Source of the DNA: Pristiophorus japonicus
Taxonomy: Eukaryota
Length of the DNA stretch: 64,000 bases
Reading direction: 5' to 3'
Assembly (NCBI RefSeq): GCF_044704955.1
Contig: NC_091989.1
Span: 84,692,001 to 84,756,000 of the forward strand
A program made the position numbers and the translations under genes. Shown here piece after piece: positions 15,755 through 60,674 of the stretch (the first letter of the stretch is position 1; every line of letters starts with the position of its first letter). The notes under the pieces were generated by a model. The model worked only from the letters and a program-made list of their open reading frames with translations, searched no databases and was not told the DNA's origin.

Positions 15755-16580
15755 TGATGTCGTTTTTAACGACTTTGCAGTTTTTTGCCACTTTGCTATT
15801 TATAGCAATTCAACTATTCCCAGGGTTTATATTTAATTCAAATCAGATTATAACACATGCTTTTAATACAGGTATATTGAGTAAAAAAAGCAGAGATTTA
15901 TCAAGTACATTACATTTTGTTACAAAAAGTAATACTCAACAAATGATAGTCACAGCCTGTTCCCGATAGCGTCCTCTCGAGAGACCGTGGTGTCGACTCC
16001 TTATCTTCTGTTGTCTTAATTTGCACTGCCTTCCTGGTAGAAGAGCTGTTACTTTATACCCTTTTTCTCCCATTCAAATGCTGTGAAACACTGCAGCTGT
16101 TTCAGCCTCACAATAGATCATATTGAGTCTACTGTTTTTGACCTTCTATGTTATCTCTATAGCCCCTCCCTCTCTGTTGCAGGAATCACTTCTCAGAACA
16201 ATTGCACAGACCATGTCACACAGAATTATACCGAGCTTGACTTTACAAAATGATAAGAAATGGTACATGCTGCATACCTTTATCTTATTGATAATTTTGG
16301 CCTTGATCGTTCTAGTTCTAAATGAAGCTGTATCAGCAGTACAAAAATGGTTAATATAATAATGGCTCAATTTACCATGATGCTTTGCTTCTGAGCTTTT
16401 GGCCATTTTAAAACCCATTTTATGTTATATAGTCCATTTTCTATCATTTATAAGTGAGTTTTACATACAATCAATGCATATAAAGAAAGTTACAAATATA
16501 CAGGTTATTCATTAATTAAAGACGTTTAACATAAACTTCTTAATTCTAACTTCTAACACCTGTCAATAGGCGATATCTAA
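15755..16580 (-). repeat. 3' LTR of mini-element
   Basis: Colinear, high-identity copy of 17842-18668. Confidence 0.9.
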
Positions 16581-16787
16581 CTTGAGGTGGAGGAACTTTC
16601 GACTCTTCATTACCTCCTAATACTGATCAGCCCTTTGAATCTGGACCATTTTATGTGTTGGATCAATTCACTACCTTCAGTACCCACTCTGATGACCATC
16701 GGTCTGTATTTTCCTTTAAAGTCTTGAATATCTAAAGTTTTCATTTTTACTCTTTTCTAATAGACTTTATGCGGTTATAAAATTAAG

Positions 16788-17279
16788 TCATGTTTTTGTT
16801 TGGCGTATTAGGTGCTTTAAATAGCAGGTGTACACTATTAAACATATTAACACTGTGAGTTGAACTATTACCAATAAATGTGAAATTATTCTAATCCAGG
16901 GAGAAATTTCTATATTAATCCCTATAATTTTTGGTTCCCTACCTTGTGGTATTCGGGCTTGACTGGATATATTTTAATCAAACTTCTAATTTTACACTGT
17001 TCCACATCGTCATAGTAATGAGACAGTCCTGACAAAATATGCATTTGTTACCCACGTAGGCAGACGTCCCTTGTTAATACTTTCTAGATTTTCCCTGGAT
17101 TGTTCCACTAACCAGTTCCCATACATGACACAGGCGTAATTAATGGCAGCCTGACCCGAGGCATTTCTGCTTTCTCTAATGATATAGTTAATCTTGCATA
17201 CATGACTTTCTGTTATGTGCACGATATCCCTTAGGTGTATAATCATTATTTGATCTTCTCTCAACTCTTCCCTTTCCAT
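16788..17279 (-). pseudogene. env remnant (ectodomain piece plus transmembrane anchor)
   Basis: INYACVMYGNWLVEQSRENLESINKGRLPTWVTN aligns by eye with TLCSVYGDWDLNQLRKL..NQAKVATWINN of the 59-60 kb env. TM segment PWIRIISHLLVIVQLTVLICLIVYTCYLK at 16901-16815. Confidence 0.7.
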
Positions 17280-17604
17280 GTTGTTTGTCTGAATTTACTT
17301 TCTGCAATTCTTCATTCTTAGCCGAATTTTGTATTTCCAATTCTGATATTTTATCCTCTAGTTCTGTCTTCACCTGTGATTCACGTTCTGCGAAGTATGA
17401 AGCTGCATTGGTGACGAGACTCATTACCTTATCCAGCTTCCACTTCTTAGCTTTAATTTGTTCATCAATAAAAGTGACCGCATCCTTAGAGGATACATTC
17501 GGGTTTTTCCCTCGGCAATCTACCAACACTGTCTGCACTTGCGTTTCCTCACATCCTTTTTCTAACTTTTTCTGATGCTCTTCCCAGAAACACTCCTCTG
17601 GCAT
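17188..17604 (-). pseudogene. Gag-like N-terminal coiled-coil ORF of mini-element
   Basis: First ORF after the PBS; heptad-rich ESQVKTELEDKISELEIQNSAKNEELQKV; same position as the coiled-coil ORF of the 54-kb element. Confidence 0.5.
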
Positions 17605-17823
17605 CTTAAAAAAATGTTTAAGCTTCCTTAAAGAAGATAATTATCACTGTCGGTTGACGTAAATCAACCTACCACATGGTTCGATCGGTGACCAAACGAT
17701 CTGCCTTGCGTCTGCTGTTTACACACAACAACCTGTTTTCAAATGAAGAATAAAAAATTACAGGAGTCCCCACTGAACTTGTTTAATGAGTATATTGTAT
17801 TTTGTGCAATAACTCTTTGTTTT

Positions 17824-17841
17824 GTCCCTCCGTGGTCATCA
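17824..17841 (-). promoter_or_regulatory. Primer-binding site, tRNA-Arg-like
   Basis: Minus strand TGATGACCACGGAGGGAC, a 15/18 match to TGGCGACCACGAAGGGAC (complement of a vertebrate tRNA-Arg 3' end, from memory), directly after the 5' LTR. Confidence 0.7.
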
Positions 17842-18668
17842 GATGCAGTTTTTAACGACTTAGCAGTTTTTTGCCGCTTTGCTAATTATAGCAATTCAAC
17901 TATTCCCAGGGTTTATATTTAATTCAAACTAGGAGACTCTTGTTCAGATTATAGCACATGCTTTTAATACAGGTATATTGAGTAAAAACAACAGAGATTT
18001 ATCAAGTACATTACGTTCTGTTACAAAAAGTAATACTCAACAAATGATAGTCACAGCCTGTTAAGATAGTGTCCCCTCGAGAGACCCCTTATCTTCTCTT
18101 GTCTCAATTCACACTGCCTTCCTGGTAGAAGAGCTGTTACTTTATACCCTTTTCTTCCCATTCAAATGCTGTGAAACACTGCAGCAATTTCAGCCTCACA
18201 ATAGATCATATTGAGTCGACTGATTTTGACTTTCTATGTTATATCTATCTCCCCTCCCTCTCTGTGGCAGGAATCATTTCTCTAAGAACAATTATACAGA
18301 CCATGTCACACAGAATTATAATGAGCTTGGCTTTACAAAATTATGATAACTGGTACATGCTGCATACCTTTACCTTGTTGATAATTTTGGCCTTGATCAT
18401 TCAAGTTCTAAATGAAACTAGCAGCAGTTACAAAAATGTTGAACATAATAGTGGCTCAATTTACCATGATGCTTTGCTTGTCAGCCTTTGGCCATTTTAA
18501 AACCCATTTTATGTTATACAGCCATTTTCTATCGTTTATAAGTGAGTTACATACAATCAATACATAGAAAGGAAGTTACAAACATACAGATTATTCATTA
18601 ATTAAAGACGTTTAAAATTAACTTCTTAATTCTAACTTCTAACACCAGTCAATAGGCGATATCTTACA
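17842..18668 (-). repeat. 5' LTR of mini-element
   Basis: Starts TGTAAG on the minus strand; TATAAA (minus) at 18141-18146; followed by the PBS. Confidence 0.9.
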
Positions 18669-18914
18669 CACTCTCCCATTCGCGGTTTGCGACCAAGTAT
18701 CCACAGAATTAATGCGACTTGAATCTCAGGGAATCATTGAGAGCATCGACTCCTCACGCTGGATCTCGAACTTAGTCATTGCTTGACGTAAAAATGGGGA
18801 GATCCATCTATGCATCGACTTGAAAGAGGTGAACAAGGCCATCATCCCCGACAAGTACCCTCTTCCTACCATCGACGAAATGTCTTCAGAATTCCACGGC
18901 TCAGTAGTCTTTAT

Positions 18915-20015
18915 GGGCCCAAGTTTCCACACGAAAAAAAATGGGCGCCCCTCTGAGCTGGGCGTCTGTTTTTCACGCCTAAAACGGCGCCTAAAAAAAA
19001 CCGCGCTATTCTCGAGCGCCCTGCAGCTCTTTGTCTGCCTGGCGCAGCGTGGAGGGGGGCGGAGCCTACACTCGCGCAGATTTTGTAAGTGGGAGGGGGC
19101 GGGTACTATTTAAATTTGTTTTTTTTCCTGTCGGCAACGCTGCGCGTTGGAGCGTTCGCGCACGCGCAGTGTGAAGCAAACATTGACAGTCGGCCATTTT
19201 TGTAGTTCTTTATAGCTGTTCAATTTTTGAACATTTTTTAATAAAAGCACATTGCCATCAGCACTGAGGCTTCCTGCAGCAGTGATAAAGCCTCAAAGTT
19301 GAGGCAGCCGTTTCCCTCCCCACCCCTGCCCGCCGTCGGGAACGCACTGAACGGCTCCCTCCCGCCCCCCCCCCCGCCCCGGCAGGAACGCACTGAAAGG
19401 CTCTCCCCCCCCCGCCCCCGCGGGAACGCACTGAACGGCCCTCCCGCCCTGGCGGGAACGCACTGAAAGGCTGGGCTCTCCCCCCCCCCCCCCCGGCCCC
19501 GGCGGGAACGCACGGAACGGCTCCCGCCCCCGCGGGAACGAACGATGGCTGAAGCACTTTCACACAGGTAGGAAGATGGTTTATTTAATCTTTTCTTTGC
19601 TTATAAATGTTTATTCAGGTTGGATTTATTGGTATAATATTTGTAGAAGTATAAATAAGAATTTATTGTAGAATTTAGTGACTTCCCTCCCCCCCCACTT
19701 TGTTCTGGACGCCTAATTTGTAACCTGCGCCTGATTTTTTAATGTGTAGAACAGGTTTTTTCAGTTCTACAAAAATCTTCACTTGCTCCATTCTACTTTT
19801 GTTTGGAGTACGTTTTCACTGTGGAAACTTTGAAATCAGGCGTCAGTGGCCGGACACGCCCCCTTTTGAAGAAAAAATTCTGTTCCAAATTAGAACTGTT
19901 CTCCCTCACTAGAACTGCAGAAAAAAAAATGTGGAGAATTGTGATTTCTAAGATAGTTCGTTCTCCACCAGTTGCTCCTAAAAATCAGGCACAAATCATG
20001 TGGAAACTTGGGCCC
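18915..20015. mobile_element. Non-autonomous PIF/Harbinger-type DNA transposon (MITE) in the Gypsy RT
   Basis: 20-bp TIRs GGGCCCAAGTTTCCACAYGA (one mismatch); 3-bp TSD TAT/TAC; removing it restores RT ...GSVVFTKLDL; no transposase. Confidence 0.9.
19330..19550. repeat. Internal tandem repeat of MITE (CGGGAACGCACTGAACGGCTCC + C-run)
   Basis: About six visible copies. Confidence 0.85.
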
Positions 20016-22075
20016 TACGAAACTAGACTTGCGCTGCAGTTACCTGCAAATACCCCTAGCCGAGGATAGCAAACCGCTCACAGTATTCACGACACATGAT
20101 GGTGTGTATCAGTATTGACGCATGCCCTACGGACTATCTTCTGCACCAAGTGCATTTCAGAAGATTGTCACTACTATGCTAGCAGGCATAGAGGGAATCC
20201 GCAATCTGCTTGATATCGTCGTCCATGGACGGACAATGGCAGAACTTGACCAGCGACTTCATGCTGTTATGGCTAGACTTGCTACACATAACATAACACT
20301 TAAGTGTATATTCGCTGCTGGAGAAATAAACTTTCTGGGCTACAAAGTCACAGCACAGACAACATTGACGCGATCCAGCAAAAGCAGGAGGTTACCAACG
20401 TGAAAGAACTTTCATCATTCCACAGCACTTGCAACTTCGATCTGACATTCGTCCCGCATTACGCACACATTGCTGAGCCTCTTCGCAAGTTGCTGCGCAA
20501 GGACGTCTCTTGGGAATGGACAGATTCCCAGGCTCAGGCATTCACCACGCTTCAGGAGAAAATCACATCCCCTCCTATCCTCACGCACCTTGATCCAAAT
20601 ACCACTACATACGTCACCACGGATGCATCAGGCACCGCCATGGGTGCTGTGCTCTCGCAATGGATTGACGGCCTGGAACGCCCAGTCGCCTTCGCCTCTT
20701 GCACGCTCTCGTCTGCAGAATGTAAATAGTCTACAGGGGAACGCAAAGCACTCGCATCTATGCATGTGAACGCTGGCACATCTACCTCTATGGCAGGAAA
20801 TTTACTCTCCGTACGGATCACCAAGCATTAGCTACGCTACTCGCTACAACTGGATCTGGGCACAGACCACTACGAATCAACCGATGGTCAGATTGCCTTC
20901 ATCAGTATAACTTTGATGTACAGTACATCGCGGGCAGTCGCAATCATGTAGCTGACATGCTCAGCCGCTCGACACCTGCTTCGGACTCTGGTGCTGACTT
21001 GTTCACGGATGACGACATATGTCACGTCGATCATCACTCAGTCCATCAGAAACCTTGTCTCCTGTGACGAACACAAAACCGAATCAATTAAAGCGTGATG
21101 CTAAGCTCCAGCACATGTGCCACTTCCTCCAGACTGAGTGGCCTAAGCAAATTCCGGAAGAGCTGTAAACCTTCCACAGACTTCACGATGAATTTTCAGT
21201 TTGGAACGATGGCTGCCTAGCTCGTGGTGATAGAGCAATAATTCCCAAGTCACTTCAACAGCGCGTTCTCTCATTGGCACACAATGGAGACCCTGGCATT
21301 GTCCGCATGAAGCAGAGATGTCGCGATTCAGTATGGTGGCCTGGGATTGACGCATCGAGGAGTTTGTCTCACACGGTGAAGCATGCAGTCTGAGCAAAAA
21401 GGCCACAAACATCTGACCAGTGCCAATGAAGTCCATTCTATGGCCACAAAGACCATGGCAACAACTTCAGTTGGATATCTTCGGTCCAGTTGAAGCAGCT
21501 CCACAGTACCAGCGTTTCCTTGTTGTAGTACATGACCTGCATTCCAAATGGCCTGAAATCGCTACAAGAAGTTCAGTGACCTCATCAATGATCGTCACTA
21601 TTCTGCAGCCTATGTAGGGCATCCCAGAAGTCATAATCACTGATAATGGACCACAGATTGTATCCGACCAGTTTGCGGATTTCCTCATTCGTCATGCTAT
21701 CGAGCATTGCCTTACTGCTCAGTTCAATCCTCAAAGCAACAGAGGTGTTTAGCGATTTAACTGTATCATCAAAGAAGGTTTGAAAGCCAACCTCGCAGCA
21801 GGCCAAACATTCTCTACACATACCATTCAACAAAGCACTCGCTAACGGGGAAGACACCCGCTGAGCTCATGATTGGGTGGAATCTTCACTGGCTACTGGA
21901 CATTCTCAAACCCCCAGCCAAAGCTAGCGCGAAGAGACCAGCAGGATGAAACAGAGGCACTGTTGTGTTTCCCAACCAAAACCTCGAGCAAACACCACAA
22001 GCTCCACTCCGATCTCAGCATATCAGATCACGACCTGGCTATCTCAAGGACTTTGTCTGTACATAGACTGGTTTT

Positions 22076-22300
22076 AAAAGGGTGGGGTGGGGGAAATATG
22101 TTGTGTTCATACTATCTTTATTTGTTACAGCTCACTGTACGGCATTAGGACCCTGCGGGAGCTATTCACCTTTGCTGTATTCATTCTGGTTCATGCTGAT
22201 TTGAGTCTCAATTTCTGGGTTGTATAAAAGCAGTTAAGTTAAGTTACTTTACTCCTGGCACAATTTGTCAGTTATATACGTGTACACACTATGGATAATC
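22076..22300 (+). repeat. Polypurine tract and probable 3' LTR of the Gypsy element
   Basis: AAAAGGGTGGGGTGGGGGAAA followed by TGTTGTG at 22099. The LTR right end is uncertain and no 5' partner is visible. Confidence 0.6.
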
Positions 22301-22632
22301 ACAGAACTCACAGGCAGTACCTCGAGGCTCGGGGTCAGGCCTGTAACAGGCCTGAAGAATGAGCCTGTGGGACGCAATTTAAAAGAACGCCTGCGTGCTC
22401 CTCACCGGCGGGGCTGCCAGGCCTGCAACACGCGGTGTGCAGTGGCGCAAGGTCACCGTGCAGATTATGGGGAACAGTGCTGCAGGGCGGTGCTGTATAT
22501 GGGCCTCAACTCATTGGGATTCAGAAGAGGGGTACTGAGGTGAAGGATCAGCCATGATCTTATTGAATGGTGGTGCAGGCTTGAAGGGCCGAATGGCCTA
22601 CTCCTGCACCTATTTTCTATGTTTCTTATCTT

Positions 22633-23043
22633 TTAAGAAACTGTCTATTTCTGTCTTAAATTTATTCAATGTCCCAGCTTCCACAGCTCTCTGAGGCAGC
22701 GAATTCCACAGATTCACAACCGTCAGAAGAAATTTCTCCTCATATCAGTTTTAAATGGGTGGCCCCTTATTCTAAGATTATGCACCTGAGTTTCAATAAG
22801 ATCTTATTGAAACAAAAGATTATGAGGGGGCTCGACGAGGTGGACGCAGAGAGGGATGTTTCCACTGATGGGGGAGACGAGAACTAGGGTGCATAATCTT
22901 AGAATAAGGAGCCGCCCATTTAAGACTGAGATGAGGAGAAATTTCTTCTCTGAGGGTTGTGAATCTGCGGAATTCTCTGCCTCAGAGAGATGTGGAAGCT
23001 GGGACATTGAATAAATTGAAGACACAAATAGACAGTTTCTTAA
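22633..23043. repeat. Fold-back inverted repeat of CR1 3' coding sequence
   Basis: 22633-22787 is the reverse complement of 22888-23043; perfect 24-bp palindrome at 22790-22813. Confidence 0.85.
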
Positions 23044-23054
23044 AGGAACTGAAA

Positions 23055-26000
23055 TATACAAAATAGGTGCAGGAGTAGGCCATTCGGCCCTTCGAGCCTT
23101 CACCACCATTCAATAAGATCATGGCTGATCCTTCACCTCAGTACCCCTTTCCCGCTTTCTATCCATACCCCTTGATCCCTTTAGCCATAAGGGCCATATC
23201 TAACTCCCTCTTGAATACATCCAATGAACTGGTATCAACAACTCTCTGCGGCAGGGAATTCCACAGGTTAACAACTCTGAGTGAAGAAGTTTCTCCTCAT
23301 CTCAGTCCTAAATGGCCTACCCCTTATCCTAAGTGTCCCCTGGTTCTGGACTTCCCCCAACATCGGGAACATTCTTCCCGCATCTAACCTGTCCCGTCCC
23401 GTCAGAATCTTATTCGTTTCTATGAGATTCCCTCTCATCCTTCTAAACTCCAGTGTATAAAGGCCCAGTTGATCCAGTCTCTCCTCATATGTCAGTCCAG
23501 CCATCCTTGGAACCAGTCTGGTGAACCTTCGCTGCACTCCCTCAATAGCAAGGATATCCTTCCTCAGATTAGGAGACCAAAACTGAACACAATATTCCAG
23601 GTGAGGCCTCACCAAGGCCCTGTACAATTGCAGTAAGACTCCCTGCTCCTATACTCAAAATACCCTAGATATGAAGGCCAACATGCCATTTGCCTTCTTC
23701 ACCGCCTGCCTTACCTGCATGCCAACTTTCAATGACTGATGAACCATGACACCCAGGTCTCTTTGCACCTCCTCTTTTCCTAATCTGCCGCCATTCAGAT
23801 AATATTCTGCCTTTGTTTTTTTGCCACCAAAGTGGATAACCTCACATTTATCCAAGTCACCCTGCAGCCTCTTAGCATCCTCCTCACAGCTCACACCGCC
23901 ACCCAGTTTAGTGTCATCTGCAAACTTGGATATATTACACTCAATTCCTTCATCCACATCATTGATGTATATTGTAAAGAGCTGGGGTCCCAGCACTGAG
24001 CCCTGCGGCACTCCACTAGTCACTGCCTCCCATTCCGAAAAGGACCGTTTATCCCGACTCACTGCTTCCTGTCTACCAACCAATTCTCTATCCACGCAAG
24101 TACATTACCCTCAATACCATGTGCTTTGATTTTGCACACCAATCTCTTATGTGGGACCTTGTCAAAGGCCTTTTGAAAGTCAAAATACACCACATCCACT
24201 GGCTCGCCCTTGTCCACTTTACTAGTTACATCCTCAAAAAATTCCAGAAAATTTGTCAAGCATGATTTCTCTTTCATAAATCCATGCTGACTTGGACCAA
24301 TCCTGTCACTGCTTTCCAAATGCGCTGCTATTCCATCCTTAATAATTTATTCCAACATTTTCCCCACTACTGATGTCAGACTAACCGGTCTATAATTACC
24401 TATTTTCTCTCTCCCTCCTTTTTCAAAAGTGGTGTTACATTAGCTACCCTCCAGTCCACAGGAACTGATCCAGAGTCAATAGACTGTTGGAAAATGATCT
24501 CCAATGCATTCACTATTTCCACGGCCACTTCCTTAAGTACTCTTGGATGCAAACAATGAGGCCCCGGGGATTTATCGGCCTTCAATCTCATCAATTTCCC
24601 GCCTAATTAGGATATCCTTCTATTCCTCCTTCTCACTAGACCCTCGGTCCCCTAGTACTTTCGGAAAGTTATTTGTGTCTTCCTTCATGAAGACAGAACC
24701 GAAGTATTTGCTCAATTGGTCTGCCATTTCTTTGTTCCCCATTATAAATTCACCCAAGTCCGACTGCAAGGGACCTACGTTTATCTTCACTACTCTCTTT
24801 CTCTTCACATATCTATAGAAGCTTTTGCAGTCAGTTTTTATGTTCCCGGCAAGCTTCCTCGCGTACTCTATTTCCCCCCTCCTAATTAAACCCTTTGTCC
24901 TCTTCTGCTGAATTCTAAATTTCTCCCAGTCCTCTGGTTTGCTACTTTTTCTGGCCAATTTATATGCCTCTTCCTTGGATCTAACACTATCCTTAATTTC
25001 CCTTGTTAGCCACGGTTGAGCCACCTTCCCTGTTTTATTTTTACTCCAGACAGGAATGTACAATTGTTGAAGTTCATCCATGTGATCTATAAATGTTTAT
25101 CATTGCCTACCCACCATCAACGCTCTAAATATCACTTGCCAGTCTATTCTAGCCAATTCACGCCTCATGCCGTCGAAGTTAGCTTTCCTTAAGTTCAGGG
25201 CCCTAGTTTCTGATTGAGCTGTGTCACTCTCCATCTTAATAAAGAATTATACCATATTATGGTCACTGTTCCCCAAGGGGCCTCGCACAACAAGATTGCT
25301 AATTAGTCCCTTCTCATTACACATCACCCAGTCTAGGATGGCCAGCTCTCTAGTTGGTTCCTCGACATATTGGTCAAGAAAACCATCCATAATACACTCC
25401 AGGAAATCCTCCTCCACCGCATTGCTACCAATTTGGTTAGCCCAATCTATATGTAAATTAAAGTCGCCCATGATAACTGCTGTACCTTTATTGCACACAT
25501 TCCTTATTTCTTGTTTGATGCTGTCCCCAACCTCACTACTACTGTTTGGTGGTCTGTACACAACTCCCACCAGCGTTTTCTGCCCTTTGCTTTTCCGTAG
25601 CTCCACCCATACCGATTCCACATCATCCAAATGTCCTTCCTTATTATTGCATTAATTTCCTCTTTAACCAGCAATGCCACCCCGCCTCCTTTTCCTTTCT
25701 GTCTATCCGTCATAAATGTTGAATACCCCTGGATGTTGAGTTCCCAGCCTTGGTCATCCTGGAGCCATGTCTCCGTGATGCCAACTACATCATATCCATT
25801 AATTGCTATCTGCGCAGTTAATTCGTCCACCTTATTCCGAATACTCCTCGTATTGAGGCACAGAGCCTTCAGGCTTGTCTTTTCAACACACTTTGCCCCT
25901 TTAGAATTTTGCTGTAATGTGGCCCTTTGTTTTTTGCCTTGGTTTTGTCTGCCCTCCACTTTTACTATTCTCCTTTTTATCTTTTGCCTCTGTCTCCCTT

Positions 26001-28186: not shown

Positions 28187-28238
28187 AAACTGCCTGATTT
28201 GCACTGCGTAAAAAAAGGTTTAACACATTCTGTCAATT

Positions 28239-37630: not shown

Positions 37631-39460
37631 ATGGCTATGGCTGCTCCCAATCCAGATTGAAGGGTAAGATCTCATCGGTTTAATGATGCCGCATTGGTGG
37701 GGGCAGTGAAACCAAGGAGAGATGCGCTGTTCCTGACCAGTGGAAGGAGGCCATTGCCCCAGGTCTTCAGGGCAATGTGGAGTGAAGTGACACACAAGGT
37801 CTCGGCCAGTAGCGTGGTTGTCTGGAGCCTGACACGGTGCTATAAAAAGTTCAACGACCTCAGTTGAGTATTCAAAGTGAATACACGCCTCAACAGGTCC
37901 TACATACCACATCGGAACCTCTGTCTGTGCATACTGCGCTTTGCCCCACTCCCCCACCAAACATCTGCAACTATTCAAACTCACTTCCTCATCTCACGCA
38001 TTGCCCACATTCACTGCTATTCAACGACGGCAGACAAATCTCTCAGACACAAAGCTGGACTCTGACTCATACACATTACTTTCTTTTGCGGGTCAATAGG
38101 AGGGAGCAGCAGAGGACAGGTGATGTGCAGCTCCAGCAGCTCTCAGATTTGGAGGAGTGAATGCTGCGGCTCAATGGGCAGCAGGTGGTGGATGCCGTGA
38201 CCATTGATGACATCGACCCCGCTGGGGGCAACAACGATATCTTTATCCCCTCTCCTTCTCTCATCCCACTTCCCCCTCACACCAGAAGGCTTTATCAGTT
38301 TCCAGCTCCTGATACTGTCTGCATTCCTTTCTGCATTTCTGTCCCCCAGCCCTCACCTTAATGTGAGACTTGTGACACCAGTGCTTTCAGACAATCAGCC
38401 GGCAGATGACGAGCCTGTCCCTGAGCCTCCCAATGAGAGTGAGGAAGAAGAGGAGGAGGACCCAAGCACCGTGTCACTGTATCTCTCCCCGCAGGCACCA
38501 TCCCAGAGACTGGCACTACGTGATCATTAGAGGCAAGCTTAGTAGAGGGGTCTACACTGGGCAATGCACCGGGGACTAGAGGGCTGCAGCAAGGCCACGG
38601 GGAAAGGATAACTCGAGAGTCAGCTCCCCGGAGGGAGAGTTCGTGCTTGAGTTCTGCTGCACAGGACTCAGATGAGGACCTCGATGGGGAGGCGTTTACA
38701 GCAAGGTGATGGGCCATGCACTCCAAGATAATAGGTGCAATGGCAAGGTTGCCTGAGAGCCTCCGCACTATAGTACGGAGCATGGAGGAGTCTGCCTCCA
38801 ACATTGCACAGAGCTCTGCGCACACCACGGAGCCCATCATTCCCAGTCTGCAAAGGACGGTGGACTCCCAGAGAGACCGTGGCAACGCAGACCTCATGAT
38901 GTGTGTGATGGGCAATGAGGCAGTTTCCATTGCAGCACGGGCGGAAGCAACTCAACGTCTTGGTGCTGTGATGCAGAGCATGGTTGGTGCCATTGAGTCT
39001 CAGACTGCTCCCATGCAGTCCCAGCTGGATGCCACACAAGATCTGACTGCTGCCATCATTGCTGGGTCCACCACAGTCCATCAGGGATCTCACGGTGTCG
39101 CAGCTGACCAGCAATCTGTGCTCCAGGAGGAGTGGCAGTGGTTCAGTGGAGCAGGAATCTGCTGTCCTCGCTCAGGATCACATCACTGCCACTCCGCCAT
39201 TGCACTTGTCGCTGCCTGTCACCCTGCCAGCCCAGACTGACGCCGCCCAGTCTGAGGTGGTGCAGTCTACAGCTGGGTCTTCCAGGCCCAGAGCTGGTCG
39301 AGGGCATCCTACAAGGCCATCTGTAGTCTCTCACTTTGACACTCAGCAGCCTTCCACCAGCCGTGCTGCAGCCTCTGGGGAGACACTATGTAGAAGCAGT
39401 AGAATCGGTAAAGGTAGTGTTAAGCGAGGATATAAAGTTTTGCATAAGGGTGAATATTAA
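37631..39460 (+). pseudogene. Harbinger Myb/SANT-like DNA-binding protein gene, probably spliced, decayed
   Basis: RFNDAAL..VGAVKPRRDALF...WSEVTHKVSASSVVVWSLTRCYKKFNDL (37631-37860), then NRREQQRTG..LSDLEE, an acidic tract and a helical C-terminal part; contains stops. Confidence 0.75.
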
Positions 39461-39633
39461 ATGTAATTGTTGTATATATATATATATACGTGGTGAATGT
39501 TTTCTGGTAAAAAATTGATTGGAATGTTGCATATTTGATGCAGTCTCTCATTTCAGTTTTGGGGCTCTGGTATGGAATGAGAAGTTGATGTATTGATGAG
39601 GATGAGCAAACCAATCGACCATTGGAATGGAAT

Positions 39634-40620
39634 TCATTGGAACCGAAGTCTGATGAGACGCTCAAGGCCTACCCTTGCAGAAGGCCAATTGAGTGCCTGC
39701 CTCCTCCATCGCTGCTGTTGCTTCTGTTTCTCCTCCTGCTCCTCCTCCTGAGGTGGTGCGGCTATGCCTGGTGACAATGGCTGCATCCTCATGATGGCCA
39801 AGTTGTGCAGAAGATGAAGATGAAAAGGGGCACCCACTCAGCCGAGTACTGGAGGACTCCTCCCGAGCGGTCAAGGTGGCGGAACGGTTGCTTGAGCACT
39901 CTGATGGTCTTCTCAATGATGTTCCTGATGGCGGCATGGCTCTCATTGTATGAGTGCTGGGCAGGAGTGGTGGGGTTGCAAAGGGGAGGCATGAGCCAAG
40001 TGGAGAGTGGATAGCCCTTCTCTCTGAGCAGCTGGCCATGAGCTTGATGCGATGGCTGGAAGGGAACTGGCACACTGGTCTGGCGCAGGGTAGCGGGTAT
40101 TGACGGTGAGGATTCGCAGTGTGTGGTCACACACCAACCGCACAGTGAGTGGTAACCTTTGCGGTTATGGAATACCTCAGGATCATGATGCGGTGCCCAC
40201 AAAGTGACGTGGGTGCAGTAAGTGGCCGTCCTGCACCGTGGGGAAACCTGCTATCCTGGGAAAGCCACATGTACGCTCGAGCTGCTTCTCTCTGCTCATG
40301 GGGAAGGAGATGTAGTTCCTCCTCCTTCTGTACAGAGCATCTGTGACCTCACGGATGTAGCAATGGACGGCAAACTGGGAGATGTTGGACATGTTGGAGA
40401 TGTTTCCTGTTGCACACTGGAAGGATCCGCTGGCGTAGAAATTGAGTATGTTGATGACCTTGACTGCCACTGAGAGAGCGACCTTACCTTGGTCTGAGGC
40501 TCGAGGTGGCAGAGCTCTGTGAACATGTCCTTGCTGAAGCACAGCCTTCGCGCACACTGTTCCTCAGTGAAATTGGTGTTGGAGAACTGCCGCTAAAATA
40601 CCCTGGGAGGGTAATTCTTC
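39634..40620 (-). pseudogene. Harbinger (HARBI1-like, DDE_Tnp_4) transposase, frameshifted
   Basis: LNFYASGSFQ, IREVTDAL, GFPTVQ, FHNRKGYHSL, KGYPLSTWLM, YNESHAAIRNIIEKTIRVLK, LDRSGGVLQY, LHNLA. Confidence 0.92.
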
Positions 40621-41465: not shown

Positions 41466-42358
41466 TCACTTTTTGATGGATCTAAGAATTACAGTGAAAG
41501 GATATTTCACAATCTTTTTCAGCTGCTCCCGGAACTGGCTCTGAGTCACGGTGTAAATGCATGTGTTTGTGCAGGAACTGAGGAGCTGGAGCAGGTATCC
41601 GATGGTACCTGCGGCAGGTGAAGGGGTATAGGAATTGGACATGAATGCGATTCGCTGATATATGAAACATGTAACATAGGTCATCCATAAAACAATAAAA
41701 CTGCCTGAGATAGTGAAGAGTAAAACAATGGATTTTCTGCGTTTGTCCATCTCTGGGTCACTGGGACTCTCCCCATCGCTGTCCTCCCGGAGTCTCCTGC
41801 GGGCTCTGCTCGCCAGCAAGATGTGTCTGACCGTCAGGGTGTTGAGGAGCAGAATCAAAAGGAACGGGACCAAAGGGGTTAGAAGCCGATGAAAAATCTC
41901 AAACGCTGCCCAGAAGATTGAAGAGTAATACTCTGGTTTTGTGATGCAAAACCATTCCAGGTTATTGAAGATGTACCGAGCTTCGAACTTGAAGAACCAG
42001 GGAGCACTTTCCAAACAGCTCAGCACAGTCACTGCTCCGACTACCACCGCCGCAGTTCTCCCAGTGCAATATTTCGTTTTCAGCTTCTGGCAACAAATGG
42101 CCACAAATCGATCAAAGGTGAAAGCGACTGTCAACCAGACAGAACTCACTGTGGCGACAAAAATGAACACCGTAACCAAACGACACACGGAAGTAATATC
42201 CAAAAAAGAGACTGGGAAATAAATAATGAGCCACCTCAGTATCACATCAGTGATGACAACCAGGAGGTCGGCCACTGCCATGGCCACCAGGTAACGAGTG
42301 ACACATTTGGAAAGACCGCACTTTCCCTGAGACAGGATCACAATCGCCAGCAAGTTAA
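41466..42358 (-). CDS. Class A GPCR, GPR139/GPR142-like, main coding exon (end of TM1 to C-terminus)
   Basis: Intact frame with NLLAIVILS, YLVAMAVADL, SVWLTVAFTFDRFVAICC, PFLLILLLN, SSCTNTCIY; acceptor TTGTTTTGTTTTCACAG (minus) just upstream; first exon not identified. Confidence 0.92.
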
Positions 42359-42594
42359 CTGTGAAAACAAAACAAGGTCAAATCACTGGCTCAGCTCAAA
42401 GCATCAGTTTACCAGGATGTTCTGTTGAATTTTCAGTATCCACTATTCAAATCTGTCTTCTGATTCCATCAGTATTTTTGGCAGGGGACCGGTTCAAAAA
42501 TAAAACTAATTGCTAATCAATTGTGAGAAATAAAAGCAACAACATCAATCTTAAAAACAAATTGAACAGGCATGATTTCTGGCCAAAAGACCAG

Positions 42595-45430: not shown

Positions 45431-45439
45431 ACTACGACC

Positions 45440-47760: not shown

Positions 47761-47766
47761 TTGGTT

Positions 47767-52052: not shown

Positions 52053-52084
52053 GCATCAGGCAACGGTCAGAGTGTGGGATCAAT

Positions 52085-52367
52085 GCGGTCGCCCATTTAA
52101 AACGAAAATGAGGAAGAATTTCTTCTCTCAGAAAGTCGTGAATCTTTGGAATTCTCTGCATCAGAGAGCAGTAGAAGCTGGGTCTTTGAATATATTTAAG
52201 GTGGAGATAGACAGATTTTTGAAAGATAACGAAGTCAAAGCTTAAGGGGAAAGGGCAGGTAAGTGGAGTTGAGGCCAGGATCAGATCAGCCGTGATCTTA
52301 TTAAATGGCGGAGCAGGCTCGAGGGGCCGTATGGCCTACTCCTGATTCTATTTCTTATGTTCTTATG
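52085..52367 (+). mobile_element. CR1 3' fragment
   Basis: GRPFKTKMRKNFFSQKVVNLWNSL plus 3' UTR. Confidence 0.88.
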
Positions 52368-53729
52368 AAATGGGTGTCAAAATTGCAGAGTCTGTAATAG
52401 GGGCTGGAGAAGACGGCTTCAGTCATCAATAAATATAAACTTTTTCTTGATATGTTGAAAGTTGGAAACCTAAGCATACAATGCTCGCAATCTACATATT
52501 ATGTAGAGGGAAATGTACGCGATGACTATCGCCTGACATTGCCTGGAATACACAGGTCTTTACCTGATTTAGAAGGGGCTCCTTTGAATTGTGAAAGTCC
52601 ATTAAAGATGGTTATCAAGGCTCAAACATAAAAAATAGGCGAGGTAATAGGGAGCGAGCAGTGCCAAGGAACCTACTCCTGCAAACAGCCATCACTTTGA
52701 GGGAGGAGGGAATAACCTTGGCAGGAAATAGGTTTACATTTTCTGCTTTTTTGGAGTTTCATGACCATTCATCCCCATGTCCCATTCTGCATCCAATTCA
52801 CAAATGCAAACACTGAAATGTATCGACGATAAAGTTTGACACTTAATTTTCAGCTTTAACTTATTCATGTGTGTGGCGCTCCTTTGTCAGGGACGGGACT
52901 CGGACCCAAGCAGGGACTGGTAGAAGGGCAGGTCAAAGCATCTGAGAGAGGGAAGAAACAAAAGAGAGGAGAATTTCACAGAACAGGACAGAGACGGGCG
53001 AAGGCATGGTGAACAGTAGTGGAGGGTGGAAGGTGAGATTCAAAAGCTAAGGATCAGGGACTTTAAACAAGTATTTCAAATCAATGCATGGAGGATGGGG
53101 AGTCAGTAGATCTCAGTAATGGCAGGGGTGGTAGATGAATGGAACTTAGTATGGGAAGAAAGAAATTGCATTTAAATATCGCCTTTCAGGACCATGGGAC
53201 ATCTTATAGCACTTCTCAGCCAGATCTGGATCTCGGTCACAAAACAGAAAGATCATTTGATCCACCCTTCGTTCCAACATCAAGAAACATCCCATCATGT
53301 CTCCACACGGTCTTCAATAGTTTCTCACATGTTTCAGGGTTTCTGTTTCGGTATTCAGACAAAGTCCAGTCTTTACTTTGATCACTTTCTGTGATAAATC
53401 TTCCTGACATCTGATCTAAATTTGTTGATATCCAGTTTGAACCTGTGCCCCCTTGACCCACGACCATGGCGTGGTTTGAAGTATTGCTCAATATGTACCA
53501 GTTAATACATTCTTCAGTCATTCCTTTCAAGATTAAAACGTTTTTCCAGTTGTCTATTGGCTATTCGCTAAACTGGCTCATTATTTTACTCGGGATCAGA
53601 ACTCAATCTAGTGCTCGGTTTGAGCACTGCTCGCACCCATTTTGATTCTAATGTTGTCAATACATAATTCAACATTCTATTTATGTTGGTGAATATTGCT
53701 CCACAGTGATTCGACAAACTGACCACAGA

Positions 53730-53902
53730 GTCCTCTAGTTTCTCCAGTCTCTCTAAGTAACTGAAGTCCCTCATCCCTTGTACAATTCTAGTAAACCTCC
53801 TCTTCACCCTCTCCAAGGCCTCGACAACCTTGCTAAATTGCAGTATCCAGAATTGGCCATAATGCTGCACCTGAGGCCTAACCGGTGTTTTATAAAGGTT
53901 AA
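53730..53902 (-). mobile_element. Old CR1 fragment adjoining the ERV LTR
   Basis: QHYGQFW...ALERVKRRFTRIV..RLEKL. Confidence 0.75.
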
Positions 53903-54515
53903 TGTAGAAATATGCAGGCTATGGCAACATAAGATGGGAAGACCTGAGAATAAGGTTAAGGTGCCTTGAACATAGAAATGAATTACCAATTGAAACTGAA
54001 CTTTAGTCAATCCTTCCTTAGCATAGCCAGTAACAATTATAAACTAATCATGGAAAATAAAGTTTAGAATAAACTAATCATCAGGACAGACAAATGTGTA
54101 AGCAAAGAGATGGGACAAATTAGAGAATAGTATGTACCAGGAGGGGAAACCCCACCAAGGCAGTGAGAACCTAGAACCCACCCTCGAGAGAAGCTGGACC
54201 TTAAGCAGGGAGCTTAAAGCAGGACACGAGAGAAGCCGGACCTTAAGCTAGGAGCTTAAAGCAAGACACCAGTGGCAGAGATTGATCACCTCTGTTAACG
54301 GGTAATATAAGCACAAGTAGTGAGGCTTATGTGCTATTTTATACATTGTTTGTACTTTAATTCTAATTTGAGAAATAAAGTTTATTTGGCTTAAACGTAA
54401 CATTTGTCAACGACTTTCTTTCAATACTCGAAGTCCCACCAAATTGTTGCGACTGTAGTAACTAAATACCCACCGAGTAAACTGTCTACAAACCTACAGT
54501 GAGTTTTGGGCAACA
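53903..54515 (+). repeat. 5' LTR of ERV-like element
   Basis: Starts TGTAG, ends CAACA; two ~43-bp tandem repeats (~54185-54270); TATAA at 54306-54310; AATAAA at 54374-54379. Confidence 0.85.
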
Positions 54516-54518
54516 AAC

Positions 54519-54536
54519 TGGCGACCCAGATGGGAC
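54519..54536 (+). promoter_or_regulatory. Primer-binding site, tRNA-Arg(CCG)
   Basis: TGGCGACCCAGATGGGAC is the complement of the vertebrate tRNA-Arg(CCG) 3' end GUCCCAUCUGGGUCG-CCA (from memory), 3 nt after the LTR end. Confidence 0.9.
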
Positions 54537-54612
54537 TGTGAATTTAAAGAGTATTGGAAGAAAGAAAGTCAGTATTTGAACTGGTCAGGGACCAGGACTA
54601 AGGACAGTCAGT

Positions 54613-55770
54613 ATGGAGACACAAAGGGAAAAAAAATAAGGAAATTACCTCCCATGATTGGGAAGAGCAGTTTAACCGAGTAATGATTCAGAAATTTCAG
54701 TTGGATGTCGACAATGTCCATGTTATGGCCAACTGAAAGTACAGGCCAAAAAATTTTAGAAACTACTTTAACAGGCGCCAGTAAAACCCTAAAAGGTAAA
54801 AATTACAAATATGTACAAATGGGAGCCTGGTATCACGAGTTACGGAATGAACGAACCCAACTCCAGGAGCAAACGCGCGAATTGGAAAGGGTCAAAAGGG
54901 AAATAGAGGAATTAAGGAGAGAAAATACCCAACTCAAGTACGAAAAATAATTACGGCTAGTCTGCGAACCATAGATTCAAGTGTATTTGCGACTAATAGG
55001 TGAAAGAAAGAATTGAGGGCATCGGGATTGGCCCAAGATCGCCTGGCAACCGGATGCCAGGACTTGAAGTTAGCCCTTAGATAATGCAGCAGTTTCACCA
55101 AAGGGAGAAGTATGATAAATCAGACCATACTCCCTGCCATAAAGAAATTGATAAATTAAAAGCACAATTATCCTCCCACAGAGGAATGATTTGCCTTTTC
55201 TCTGACCAAGGGGGTTCCGAAATTAACTATGCTGATTTGGCTGAGGCAGCCTATGAGTATGAACATGACCCAGAATTAGAGGAATAGAGAAAGCCCCCAC
55301 CTTATGCCCCTGACCCCCCAGCATGTCAGGCCACCATGAATCCCATGATAACTACTAGGGGTGGGGGTATCAAGGGTGACGTACCCGTACGTTACTCCAC
55401 CCCCTTGAATGTTTCCCAACTAAGTAAAATTTCCAAAGGTATTTCTAAATATGAAGGGGAAAAATAGTTTTGAATTACGGAAAGCATCAGTCAAACAGGC
55501 CTCTTAGACCCACGGATTAGATGAAGCAGAACAAAGGAAATTGGTAACTTTGTGTCTGGGACCGGTTATTTTTGGGGCCATGCCGCAAACACAAAGTATG
55601 GGAGGAGGAACCTTGGCGGAATTGTGGATCGCTATACAGGATGTTCAGGGGTCAACAGTAAGGACCCTGTTATGGAATTGGCTAACTTTAGACAGTCCCT
55701 GGAACAACACCCCTGTACCTATGCAGAGCGATTATGGGTATTTTACTGTGCGGTAATGGGTCACCGGGCT
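54613..55770 (+). pseudogene. gag-like gene (coiled-coil N-terminus, PPPY late-domain motif, capsid-like helical region), disrupted
   Basis: ORF pieces 54705-54950, 55084-55287, 55541-55756 and 55552-55830; PPPY at 55294-55305 is in frame past a stop; QHPCTYAERLW. Confidence 0.7.
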
Positions 55771-55885
55771 AGGGAGCATAGAGCTCCAAGACAAATCCAC
55801 AGAAAAGGGGTCTCAAGGTGGCCAGGATAATTCAGATGCTCATGGAGCAAGTTGAGCGTTTGGAAAAAGAGAAACACGATTCAAA

Positions 55886-57908
55886 AACATAGAAACATAG
55901 AAAATAGGTGCAGGAGCAGGCCATTCGGCCCTTCGAGCCTGCACCGCCATTCAATATGATCATGGCTGATCATGCAACTTTAGTACCCCCACTCCCACTT
56001 TCTCTCCATACCCCCTGATCACCTTAGCCATAAGGGCCACATCTAACTCACTTTTGAAAATATCCAACGAACTGGACTCCACAACTTTCTGTGGTAGAGA
56101 ATTCCACAGGTTCACCACTCTCTGGATGAAAAAGTTTCTTGTCATCTCGGTCCTATATGGCTTACATTTTATCCTTAGACTGTGACCCCTGGTTCTGTAC
56201 TTCCCCAACATCGGGAACATTCTTCCTGCATCTAAACTGTCCAGTCCCATCATAATTTTATATGTTTCTATGAGATCGCCTCTCCTTCATCTAAATTCCA
56301 GTGAGTATAAGCCTAGCCGATCCAGTCGTTCTTCATATATCAGTCCTGCCATCCCGGTAAACCTTCGCTGGACTCCCTTAATAGCAAGCATGTCCTTCCT
56401 CAGATTAGGAGACCAAAACTGCACACAATACTCAAAGCCCTGTACAACTGCAGTAAGACCTCCCTGCTCCTATACTCAAATCCTCTCGCTATGAAGGCCA
56501 ATGTGCTATTTGCTTTCTTTACTGCCTGATGTACATGCCTGCCCACCTTCAGTGACTGATGTACCATGACACCCAGGTCTCTTTGCACCTAGCCTTTTAC
56601 TATTCTGTCCCATTCAGATAATAATCTGCCTTCCTGTTTTTGCCACCAAAGTGGATAAACTCACATTTATCCACATTATGCTGCATCTGCCATGCATCTG
56701 CCAAGTCACCCTGCAGTCTCTTAGCATCCTCTTCACAACTCACACTGCCACCCAGCTTAGTGTCATCTGCGAACTTGGAGATATTACATTCAATTCCTTC
56801 ATCCAAATCATTAATGTATATTGTAAATAGCGGGGTCCCAGCACTGAACCTTGCAGCACCCCACTAGTCACTGACTGCCATTCTGAAAAGGACCCGTTTA
56901 TTCCCACTCTTTGCTTCCTGTCTGCCAACCAGTTCTCTATCCATGTCAATACATTACCCCCAATATCATGTTCCTTAATTTTGTACACTAATCTCTTATG
57001 TGGGACCTTTTCAAAAGCCTTTTGAAAGTCCAAATACACCACATCCATTGGTTCTCCCTTATCCACTCTACAAGTTACATCCTCAAAAACGCTAGAAGAT
57101 TTGTCAAGCATGATTTCCCTTTCATAAATCCATGCTGACTTGGACTAATCCTGTCACTGCTTTCCAAATGCGCTGCTATTACATCTTTAATAATTGATTC
57201 CAGCATTTTCCCCACCACTGATGTCAGGCTAACCGATCTATAATTCCCATTTTCTCTCTCCCTCCTTTTTTAAAAAGTGGTGTTACATTCGCTACCCTCT
57301 AATCTATAGGTAGTGATCCAGAGTCCATGGAATTTTGGAAAATGACTACAAATGCATCTAATATTTCTAGGGCCACTTCCTTAAGTACTCTGGGATGCAG
57401 ACTATCAGGCCCTGGAGATTTATCGGCCTTCAGTCCCATCAGTTTCCCTAACACCATTTCCTGACTAATGAGGATTTCCCTCAGTTCCTCCTTCCCGCTA
57501 GACCCTCGGTTCACTAGTATTTTCGGGAGGTTATCCGTGTCTTTCTTAGTGAAGACAGAACCAAAGTATTTATTCAATTGGTCTGCCATTTCTTTGTTCC
57601 CCATTATAAATTCACCTGCTTCTGACTGCAAGGGACCTACGTTTGTCTTCGCTAATCTTTTTCTCTTCATATGTTTATAGAAGTTTTTGCAGTCAGTTTT
57701 TATGTTCCGTGCAAGCTTACTCCCATATTCTATTTTCCCCCTCCTAATTAAACCCTTTGTCCTCCTCTGCTGAATTTAAAATTTCTCCCAGTCCTCAGGT
57801 TTGCTGCTTTTTCTGGCCAATTTATATACCTCTTCCTTGAATTTAACACTATCCCTAATTTCCCTTGTTAGCCACGGTTGAGCCACCTTTCCTGTTTTAT
57901 TTTTATGC
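55886..57908 (-). mobile_element. 5'-truncated CR1 inserted in the ERV
   Basis: KSPGPDSLHPRVLKE, YLDFQKAFEKVPH, SKFADDTK; tail CATAGAAACATAGAAA at 55888. Confidence 0.95.
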
Positions 57909-58260
57909 CAGAAAGTAGGGCAGGAGAGAGAGAGGCCGTCATGAACCGGCTGACAGAAGTTTTGAGCAATGAAAGGCAGGAGAGAAAAGCGCAGGAAGAA
58001 ACGGCTAGAAACAAGATAGAGTATCTGCAATTTCAGGCCACCAAAAGTAGAAGGCAGTGTCAGGCTCAGCGAGAGGAAATAAATAGGAACTCAGAGAGAG
58101 CTGACAAGGCTGAGGGTCAGTTAAAAGATATAAAGGTGGCAGACAGGGGAGTTCTAAATCCAGTATATGAAGAGGCCAATCACGGGCCCTAAAATGAAAA
58201 AAATCAATAAGTTGACCCTAGCATTATCCGGGGCCAGGGATATGGCTTGTCTTATGACAC
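57909..58260 (+). pseudogene. Second coiled-coil ORF of the ERV, paralogous to its Gag N-terminus
   Basis: Heptad-rich ORF ending NHGP*NEK/INKLTLALSGARDMACLM, versus Gag DHTPCHKEIDKLKAQLSSHRGMICLF. Probably continues IQMLMEQVERLEKEK (55830-55885) across the CR1. Confidence 0.65.
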
Positions 58261-59269
58261 CGGGGGTGAAAAGTCATGAAATGTCTCTGTAAGCCTGTCT
58301 GTGTAAAAACCTTTGATGTTTTCAGGGAGAATGTTTAAAGTTGTTTACCATTGTTATGTGTTTGTCAAATTTTAAAAATGCGGAAAAAAAGAAAGATAAC
58401 TCTGCACCAGGCTTCAGAAAGCAACATCTTTTTGCAGAGTTGAATGTAAATATTTTGAGCATTTTAAAATTTTAAGAACATTTTTAAAGTTTTGAATTTG
58501 AGTAGATGTGTCCCTCAGTGACAGAAAAGGGATCAGAATTGATGAATGAATCCAGTGGAATGGCAGGAAAACCACAATAGAGTTTCTGTTTTTTTCTTCT
58601 AAGCAGGACTACTGATGGTGCAAGATTACCAAGAGGGGTTGTTTAATATGGAAGTGACTTCAAGGTGTTACCAAACTTGAACTTTTGCTGGAACAAAGGA
58701 GAAAAGCCCCAGTAATGTTCAAGAGTTTGAACTTCTTATCTGCAATGATGGATTTCAAATGTCGCAGCATGGTGACAAAATTGAACTTAAGACTGCTTTA
58801 AAAAAAAATGCCTGGAATGCATGATTTGGAATCATGTGTTATCTTCCACGATACTCGATAGCGAAGATAAAGTGCCTTTGTTTTTGTTTTGTTAAATCAC
58901 AAAGGCTGGACATAGCTTATTGTGAAATTAAAGTTAACTAGCTAAATTGATACGAGTTGCTGCTCCAGCACTCGGGAAGGGAAATTTATCTTAAATTTAA
59001 GGGGATAATTCAATCTTATCTTTTGAAAAGGTCCAGTCAATGTGGTTCTATTTAAACTGTGTTTAAAAGGATATTTTTTTTTTTCGGTGGGGGGGGGGGG
59101 GGAGGGGAGGGGGTTGGGGTGTTCTTGCAGACTGGACTGCTCTCTGGAGTGACAATTTTTTAAGAAGGTTTATTAAGAGCTTATCAGCTGTCCAACTGTA
59201 AGAAACATAATCAGTAACCCACGGAAGAGCTTAAAACCAACGTGCTCATGTAAACACCAAGGGAAGATA

Positions 59270-60674
59270 GTGGTTCAGGTATTACAGACACCTACTACCC
59301 CCGAACCAACTACCCCACTTGCTACGACCTCACTTCCGGTTTGGGACTGCACCAAACACAAGCCAGGTCCAAGGGGAGGCGTTGTTATAAGACCGGCAAG
59401 AAAGGTTGTGTATGACAATGTACAGTGCAAAGTAGTACCCGTTGTGCTAAATATGTTAAATATGAAATTGTCCGACTGGTGTCCAAAGGAGCAGAAACAG
59501 ATCTACGCGAATTTGGTGAAGGTGTTGCTCAAGCAAGAGGTAGGAGACAGTATCACAGAGGGAAAAATGAGAAGGAAGAGAGGATTAATAAACGATGTAG
59601 GCACCATATATGGCGTCAGTATGGCTACTGTGAATACCCTGGATATATAGCAAGTTTGAACGATAAGATTAAAACTTTGACTAATCAGATCAAGGGAGTC
59701 CTAAAGGATTTGAACGACAATCAGTGAACTCATCACAGGCAGGAAAGGAAGATGCTCAGACACAGGAAGGGATAGTAAGAGTTTTAGAAGGACATGCTCA
59801 AACCATCAATAAAATAATTTGGGTAACTAAGAGACAGGACAATATAACCCAAAGCCAAACGTTATGTAGTGTTTACGGGGACTGGGATTTGAATCAACTG
59901 AGAAAACTTGATGTTAGCTAACCAGGCAAAAGTAGCAACCTGGATAAACAATACCCAACTGTTTAGACTAGTCAGAAGCAAGGATTGTGATGATGGTCAC
60001 ATTAACAATTATGAACTGAGGAAACTTAGTAAAGTTTGATTCAACAAGGACTGCAAGGGCAGTAGCAGTAATAGCTCCTTGGGTCTAGTTATTGGTATAC
60101 CGATTATGGTAGAGCAAGGAAAGATGGATTTGCTGGAGGTCCAGAATATAGGGAGAATACAGGGAGGAGTCTAGGTAAGGTATGACCATCTGTTGCCATA
60201 TGCTGTATCACAGAACGATACCTTGGTCGGCACCAGACTTGATCAATGCGAACAAACAGAACAAGTGGTGATATGTTCATACAAAATCTATTCCACCAAC
60301 ACCGCCAGGTGTGGGTTCAAAGTAAACCCACCCGTAAATTGCACCATGATGATTGAAGCAACTACGAAATCAATCATAAGAACCAATTACCAAGGAAACG
60401 GGGCTTACCACATCACCACGAATGAAAAAACTTACCATTATGAGAATAGAGTATGCCCCATAAAAGATTCCACCTTCTGTCTACATCCCCAAATACCAAT
60501 GAGACTGGGGAATGAAGAAATCATCAATATAGATAGAAGGCCAGCCGTGGAGATCAACATGAGCGTCAAACTAAAGGGACATCTGAGAGACTACTTTGCC
60601 AAATATGATAATGATATTGCGCTGGAAAAGGAACATTTGTTTAGGATCCACAGCCAGCCGGAATTAGTATATAA
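59270..60674 (+). pseudogene. env gene, F-type class I fusion glycoprotein-like, disrupted and cut by CR1
   Basis: Thr/Pro-rich start; furin site RRKR (59570-59581); fusion-peptide-like GLINDVGTIYGVSMATVN; heptad repeat; Cys-rich region CEQTEQVVIC...CGF...C; N-glycosylation sequons (NIT, NNT, NDT, NCT, NMS). Confidence 0.85.

Follow-up and report, generated by a model that had tools for sequence, protein, structure and literature searches.

Two pol-less proviruses of Pristiophorus japonicus come from separate, likely snakehead retrovirus-like families with a predicted paramyxovirus F-type envelope protein

Endogenous retroviruses (ERVs) resembling snakehead retrovirus (SnRV; clade Huo, class III) are known from a cartilaginous fish, with CmiERV lineage I of the elephant shark (PMC4422223, PMC6001957), and pairs of recombinant elements and their relatives, namely ETn/MusD, RecKoRV/KoRV-A and the D/C pairs of bovine ERVK[2-1-LTR], are described in PMC10924933. 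Here we compare with these systems two long terminal repeat (LTR) proviruses found in a 64,000-nt window of the Pristiophorus japonicus genome (NC_091989.1, positions 84,692,001 to 84,756,000), a repeat-dense stretch within a 5.9-Gb genome. Provirus A occupies 15758-18668 on the minus strand, and provirus B runs from 53903 to about 880 bp beyond the end of the window. With good confidence we read them as old pol-less proviruses of two ERV families, likely SnRV-like, with pol-bearing copies elsewhere in the genome; B belongs to a recombinant form that helper enzymes likely multiplied, A probably lost its pol through one deletion, and for the envelope protein (Env) of both we predict a fusion protein of the paramyxovirus F type.

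Full copies have the layout LTR, primer-binding site (PBS), gag, protease, reverse transcriptase (RT), tether, RNase H, integrase, env, polypurine tract and LTR, with a target-site duplication of 4-5 bp. In a tree of 43 RT rows, which holds a subset of the copies of each family, A, B, two further families of the same genome (C and D) and ERVs of frogs and coelacanth fall together with a support of 96/98, separately from the foamy, gamma, epsilon, delta and Gypsy sequences. The original prediction had spoken of a chondrichthyan retrovirus-like clade; the retrovirus-like part is borne out, but the clade reaches beyond chondrichthyans and likely belongs to a type already described (SnRV-like, clade Huo). 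The RTs of A and B are closer to SnRV, their nearest named relative (41-50% identity), than to foamy, epsilon, gamma (27-38%) and delta RTs. The likeness to SnRV extends to a P-Q-G motif in RT, a coiled-coil Gag, a homologous Env (37 bits) and presumably a tRNA-Arg-type PBS. On the other hand, A and B are distinct families that lie closer to frog and coelacanth ERVs, their Env is only distantly similar to that of SnRV, and the insert between RNase H and integrase and the extra 3' open reading frame (ORF) of SnRV were not seen here. The RT of B matches frog and coelacanth pols annotated as "NYNRIN-like" (55-62%) and P0007 (52%), whose RT agrees with the row given for SnRV in the PMC7947760 supplement and whose genome measures 10,688 nt. 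The RTs also fall outside the foamy clade (100/100 apart, with mammalian foamy references only, fish foamy-like ERVs being read by eye), and the Gag found here differs from that of foamy viruses in carrying a CCHC zinc knuckle. Membership among the errantiviruses or Ty3-Gypsy elements was rejected, with 22-28% RT identity to the Gypsy rows and a second RNase H present; this dual RNase H, seen in family C pol and in the relatives of A and B, is common to all retroviruses.

The env search for family B gave 48 matches, of which 20 loci were fetched: five carry pol, twelve have an AT-rich spacer joined to env, and three are truncated and uninformative. Six of the 40 scored RT matches also belong to this family, at 84-100% identity. 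Among the twelve pol-less loci, five, like the window itself, lack pol over the whole stretch between LTR and env, two lack it from the leader onwards, and five are classed by their junction only. The junction between spacer and env is identical in the 10 pol-less loci compared and in the window, one locus having a small deletion; this comparison leaves out L054 and L061, which have insertions near the junction. One recombinant junction recurs at many independent loci, with a helper sharing LTR and PBS. At this junction env has lost its first ~145 codons, among them those of the signal peptide, and B's env consequently probably yielded no working Env. Two different gag genes have contributed to the chimeric Gag of B: the fragment before the spacer is foreign to the family (its ORF, as present in L056, has 36% identity to the Gag of family D), and the family's own gag 5' part switches onto it at one shared point in the window, L061 and L062. 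In two loci this cassette is followed by another env (76%), which shows further recombination. The LTR distances of pol-bearing and pol-less copies overlap (0.04-0.09), and in an env DNA tree of the family, with the three truncated loci left out, both kinds are interleaved and unresolved, as expected if they spread together. The 3' LTR of B lies just past the end of the window (L021:1330-1876, 83%). Directly after the PBS of family B stands a 39-bp tandem repeat, with 1-2 units in the window and up to ~30 in other copies (L051:1090-1335, L056:3764-4961, L063:3578-4307).

We hypothesize that template switching between co-packaged RNAs exchanged gag-3', pro, pol and the 5' end of env for the foreign gag fragment and the spacer. 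Because B retains LTRs, PBS, leader and polypurine tract, its RNA could still have been packaged, reverse-transcribed from tRNA-Arg and integrated with the proteins of full copies, and in the window, L061 and L062 a second switch may have brought the family's own 5' part of gag back to the front. B belongs to a recombinant form present in many copies, which helper enzymes likely produced. It resembles ETn/MusD, RecKoRV/KoRV-A and the bovine ERVK pairs, as described in PMC10924933, in that a central segment is swapped while flanking gag and env pieces and LTRs are kept, and in that non-autonomous copies outnumber helpers. Those systems are, however, beta- or gamma-type mammalian ERVs whose mobilisation is shown or strongly supported, whereas here it is deduced and, for B, ancient; moreover, the part swapped into B includes a gag fragment of a sister family. 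BHIKHARI elements (10.1101/2024.03.25.586437) are different: their gag is intact and env is missing, while B and family C keep env and lose most of gag.

Provirus A is embedded in a decayed element that we take to be of Gypsy type. Direct repeats (15756-16581 and 17842-18667, 88% identical by BLAST) surround its 1.26-kb minus-strand interior, and its PBS matches the tRNA-Arg(TCG) gene of the same genome better (15/18) than the CCG gene (12/18). The search with the family A interior gave 1316 candidates, 40 of them scored. One long copy, L022, contains protease, RT, tether, RNase H, integrase and env besides a gag that encodes a zinc knuckle, and 18 of 28 family A loci mapped on it keep pieces of pol, the other 10 being mostly interrupted by insertions or ending at the 10-kb fetch length. 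Deletions vary within the family and several are recurrent: the deletion inside A's env, with its 9-bp microhomology, is common to 6 of 27 other loci. The gag-to-env junction of A, with 8-bp microhomology, is by contrast spanned by one of 40 scored matches (157 candidates), the window itself, so that a junction repeated at several loci, as in B, is not seen; total pol loss in A is likely a single, one-off deletion giving a dead copy. A sub-lineage that already had the env deletion would have undergone a further, microhomology-mediated deletion from gag to env. An in-frame gag-env fusion in A was rejected, as the reading frames differ. Separately, nearly identical 5' halves of family A occur by the dozen on a single contig (G000:C23, L030, L033, L036-L038) and look like segmental duplicates; they hold a nested family-C-like insertion and adjoin a G-protein-coupled receptor-like ORF, presumably GPR139-like.

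Families C and D widen the picture. An Env search of the genome returned 15,147 first-look candidates, 150 of them scored, which gives no copy number. Family C (L178-L195 in part, L245-L264) is young, its LTRs being mostly 94-100% identical, has a PBS that by eye is not of the Arg type, and occurs as full, gag-less pol+env and env-only copies with a common A-rich filler. In the env-only copies the 3' part of gag and pol are replaced by 1.7-2.6 kb of this non-coding filler; among the top 40 matches to one such copy, 20 were inspected, and none of the 20 has pol in the element while 19 have the filler. The spacer of B and the family C filler show no homology. Family D (L158, L160-L165) comprises gag-pol elements with 1.5-kb LTRs, a tRNA-Arg(CCG)-type PBS and no env match.

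We hold it unlikely that the pol-less forms keep env as a translated and selected gene, for instance to provide Env to partners that lack env or gag, with the labour divided between them. The coexistence of env-only copies with complete env, gag-less pol+env and full copies in family C, next to the gag-pol elements of family D, would suit such a system, as would a ratio of nonsynonymous to synonymous substitution (dN/dS) of 0.14-0.29 between env-only subfamilies, measured in copies picked for their open frames. In 20 copies taken regardless of frame, however, dN/dS is 0.39 (0.35-0.45 by group), near the 0.47-0.53 of the decayed family B, the control by the same method, and 13 of these 20 contain in-frame stops; purifying selection on env-only copies, strong in the open-frame set, is largely gone against this control. 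Furthermore, B's env has no signal peptide, and recombination with helpers can refresh env.

The Envs of families A, B and C can be aligned along their length with that of a fifth family, with a basic cleavage site, a fusion peptide, a first heptad repeat (HR1), the motifs CxxYGxW and GxxPxW, cysteine-rich strands, a second heptad repeat (HR2) and a transmembrane segment. The Env profile found 82 proteins among 1.84 billion, the named ones from sharks, a ray, frogs and cyprinids; the best matches are from Mustelus, Chiloscyllium and Rhinoraja, while more distant ones are Envs of the lokiretrovirus (Loki) type, two of which match PF00523 below the cut-off. With a Loki-free profile, Loki-type Envs score 77-110 bits and the SnRV Env 37 bits, the best of 301 decoys reaching 4 bits, and HHalign against a Loki Env gave 98.5% (E 3.5e-15, 319 columns); pairwise phmmer with the SnRV Env found nothing. 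In a Foldseek search a low-confidence model of a family-C Env matched best the F protein of respiratory syncytial virus (E 6e-5), followed by those of metapneumovirus and henipavirus, foamy Env (rank 9-11) and F of human parainfluenza virus 3, which suggests the F-type core of foamy Env and the class Ib fusogens (PMC11468914). A better Env model, with a predicted local distance difference test (pLDDT) value of 75, has an F-like order of strands and long helices. The Atlas returned the Baculo_F and Fusion_gly clusters at 0.93-0.95, with a low recognition value; a word-based search for env homologues came up empty over 995 candidates, and a sequence search of the PDB with the env profile gave coiled-coil noise only. 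The Env tree unites A, B and C with Mustelus and Rhinoraja (84/84) and places Chiloscyllium outside this group; its deep nodes are weakly supported. We predict that the Env of A and B is a paramyxovirus F-type fusogen, in keeping with the F-like Env first proposed for them and supported by Foldseek, the Loki-free profile, HHalign and the Atlas, and through this Env the retroviruses described here are likely connected with lokiretroviruses and foamy viruses. The literature covered, which lacks most subscription papers (among them a 2024 Cell paper on spumaretroviruses, cited in PMC12583693, that may treat the subject), yielded no report of an F-like Env in SnRV-like or shark ERVs. The new point, unreported in that literature, is the predicted F-type Env that joins the SnRV-like clade, including SnRV itself, to the lokiretrovirus Env.

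Several observations on Envs stand beside this. A 928-aa hypothetical protein of Bufonid herpesvirus 1 (P0092) matches the Env profile (E 7e-4 library-wide; 62 bits with a wider profile) and is possibly a captured retroviral F-type env in a toad herpesvirus. The N-terminal Env regions vary widely among families, and some Envs of the clade (P0014, P0036, P0069) begin with an immunoglobulin/V-set-like domain. One locus (L197) carries an Env with Ebola-like HR1-HR2 (gamma type), so that two Env classes coexist in the genome; this locus and two others (L068, L081) show other ERVs nested in these proviruses.

Could these be lokiretroviruses? That label was our first guess, and it was dropped because the RT motif is P-Q-G and not P-F-G. 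It is very improbable that we are dealing with the first chondrichthyan lokiretroviruses, accompanied by BHIKHARI-like non-autonomous forms, even though the Env is homologous over the 319 columns given above and dual RNase H, coiled-coil Gag and pol-less derivatives, which exist for Loki in zebrafish, are shared (PMC7947760). The best pol matches are, in addition, annotated NYNRIN-like and the Loki integrase lies near CGIN1, while Loki was absent from six of six chondrichthyan genomes screened. Against this, P-F-G occurs in all 24 published Loki rows read, and P-Q-G in the readable sequences of A, B, C, SnRV and foamy viruses; the use of P-F-G as a Loki diagnostic is our own, taken from the published alignment (PMC7947760). 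The coelacanth match P0003 also differs from the published start of the Loki-Lch pol, and in the Env tree the Loki Envs are separated from those of A, B and C on a long branch (99.9/100). Pol was sought on four contigs with Loki env, and none was found.

Shared traits of A and B had been taken in the original prediction as marks of one pol-less lineage, and the traits themselves hold. Both PBSs are of the tRNA-Arg type with different isoacceptors (Table 1), coiled-coil-like heptads open both Gag remnants (by a crude heptad score only), tblastx with each family's own pol gave no match at E<=0.01 in either interior, and the motif C-x-x-Y-G-x-W-x3-Q-x-R...[PA]TW[IV]xN is present in both, split by a frameshift in B. 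The pairwise Env alignment, proposed as the test, is significant (tblastx E=1.2e-6, 31% over 45 aa and 38% over 24 aa; 0/2000 and 1/2000 shuffles reach the two scores), and the best non-self match of A's env in the whole window is B's env (E 4.8e-4; next 2.0). The LTRs look unrelated, as had been noted (best E=0.22), and pol-bearing relatives, which had been expected as helpers, do exist for both families (L022 for A, 5/20 loci for B). Other claims stand in part: the elements assigned to 15755..60674 are real, but B runs past 60674 and has two insertions of long interspersed nuclear elements (LINEs); a pol-less form was copied repeatedly in family B and in a third family, but not in A, with its unique deletion; and gag-N and env are retained in both, but B's env lacks its beginning. 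That A and B diverged as non-autonomous elements of one pol-less lineage, as their shared pol loss, Arg priming, Env motifs and moderately supported Env group with Mustelus and Rhinoraja might suggest, deserves next to no credence and is already contradicted by separate pol-bearing parents (each at 80-90% DNA identity), unrelated LTRs, deletions and junctions, and RTs that are only 40-47% identical to each other and 47-56% to frog and coelacanth ERVs, which excludes one shark-specific lineage.

Some points weigh against the reading of A and B as members of two SnRV-like families with an F-type Env and of B as a mobilised recombinant. The RT tree contains no lokiretrovirus, ERV-L or fish foamy-like rows, and SnRV adjoins the clade of A, B, C, D, frog and coelacanth ERVs with a support of 9.6/24 (enclosing node 87/67), which leaves its exact place unsupported. 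Pfam scans of env pieces from this genome returned no F family (0/7 and 0/3), the first Atlas query reached only 0.86-0.87, and the Foldseek query, a family-C relative, was poorly modelled (pLDDT 39, TM <=0.2) and is weak evidence when taken alone. As to B, five of the twelve pol-less loci were fetched at a 10-kb length that ends short of the leader, so that their pol loss rests on the junction; the env DNA tree is star-like and cannot show one founder for the pol-less copies; and we infer trans-mobilisation from shared structure.

The features of both proviruses are collected in Table 1. Under the substitution rates of 2.2e-9 and 2.2e-10 per site per year used in PMC4422223, their LTR-LTR distances correspond to roughly 17-190 million years, an age that is old but loosely bounded. 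Both have decayed since insertion (LTR distance 0.07-0.08) and are in themselves ordinary dead proviruses, with patterns of pol loss already known from mammals. Elsewhere in the window, a CpG-rich, island-like stretch (13050-13700), possibly a host promoter, lies ~2 kb upstream of A, and several ORFs of 120-300 codons occupy a GC-rich region (38300-40600 and 41469-42425). Families A and B occur again within 30 kb of each other at G000:C1 251.27-251.31 Mb (L058, L071), probably by chance in repeat-rich DNA.

Table 1. Features of proviruses A and B in window coordinates (K2P, Kimura two-parameter distance; HR1, first heptad repeat).
Feature	Position	Strand	Remarks
Decayed gag-pol element hosting A, no part of A	14734..21900	+	presumably Gypsy-type; family label from motifs, direct sequence reading
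A 3' LTR	15758..16581	-	target-site duplication sought, no clear one found
A env 3' end (transmembrane segment, tail) and 3' leader	16581..16926	-	polypurine tract and first bases of 3' LTR deleted
A env middle fragment	16902..17286	-	end of HR1, CxxYGxW, GxxPxW; stops at second deletion, 9-bp microhomology
A gag N-terminal remnant, coiled coil	17279..17640	-	stops at deletion, 8-bp microhomology to env
A PBS, tRNA-Arg(TCG)	17824..17841	-	15/18, match to tRNA gene of same genome
A 5' LTR	17844..18668	-	TG...CA; K2P 0.083 to 3' LTR
B 5' LTR	53903..54515	+	5-bp target-site duplication, one mismatch (4/5); K2P 0.074 to 3' LTR
B PBS, tRNA-Arg(CCG)	54519..54536	+	18/18, match to tRNA gene of same genome
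B gag of pol-bearing type	54614..55828	+	coiled coil and part of capsid; decayed
B second, different gag fragment	55829..58266	+	coiled coil; split by LINE; switch point also in L061, L062
LINE insertion within B	55883..57915	-	presumably CR1-like
B AT-rich non-coding spacer	58334..59181	+	at the place of pol in full copies; none in pol-bearing copies
B env without first ~145 codons	59182..60676	+	furin-type site, fusion peptide, HR1, cysteine-rich domains; frameshifted
LINE insertion within B env	60677..63980	-	presumably CR1-like
B env resumes	63981..64000	+	transmembrane segment, tail, polypurine tract and 3' LTR ~880 bp beyond window (L021)

The combination of an SnRV-type RT and a Loki-homologous Env in one clade, which includes the Env of SnRV, favours a common ancestor with an F-type Env. 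As a tentative extension, SnRV-like (Huo) viruses may combine a canonical RT with a Pfam-invisible Env homologous to that of Loki; taken together with the foamy Env, this would make the F-type (class Ib) fusogen ancestral and later replaced in orthoretroviruses, and this genome would hold a large radiation whose env-only and gag-less forms, on a shared AT-rich filler, spread by complementation. Such a clade also explains why Pfam misses these Envs, which have been left in databases as "uncharacterized" shark and frog proteins, and it supplies alignable sequences with which an ancestral F-type Env can be tested.

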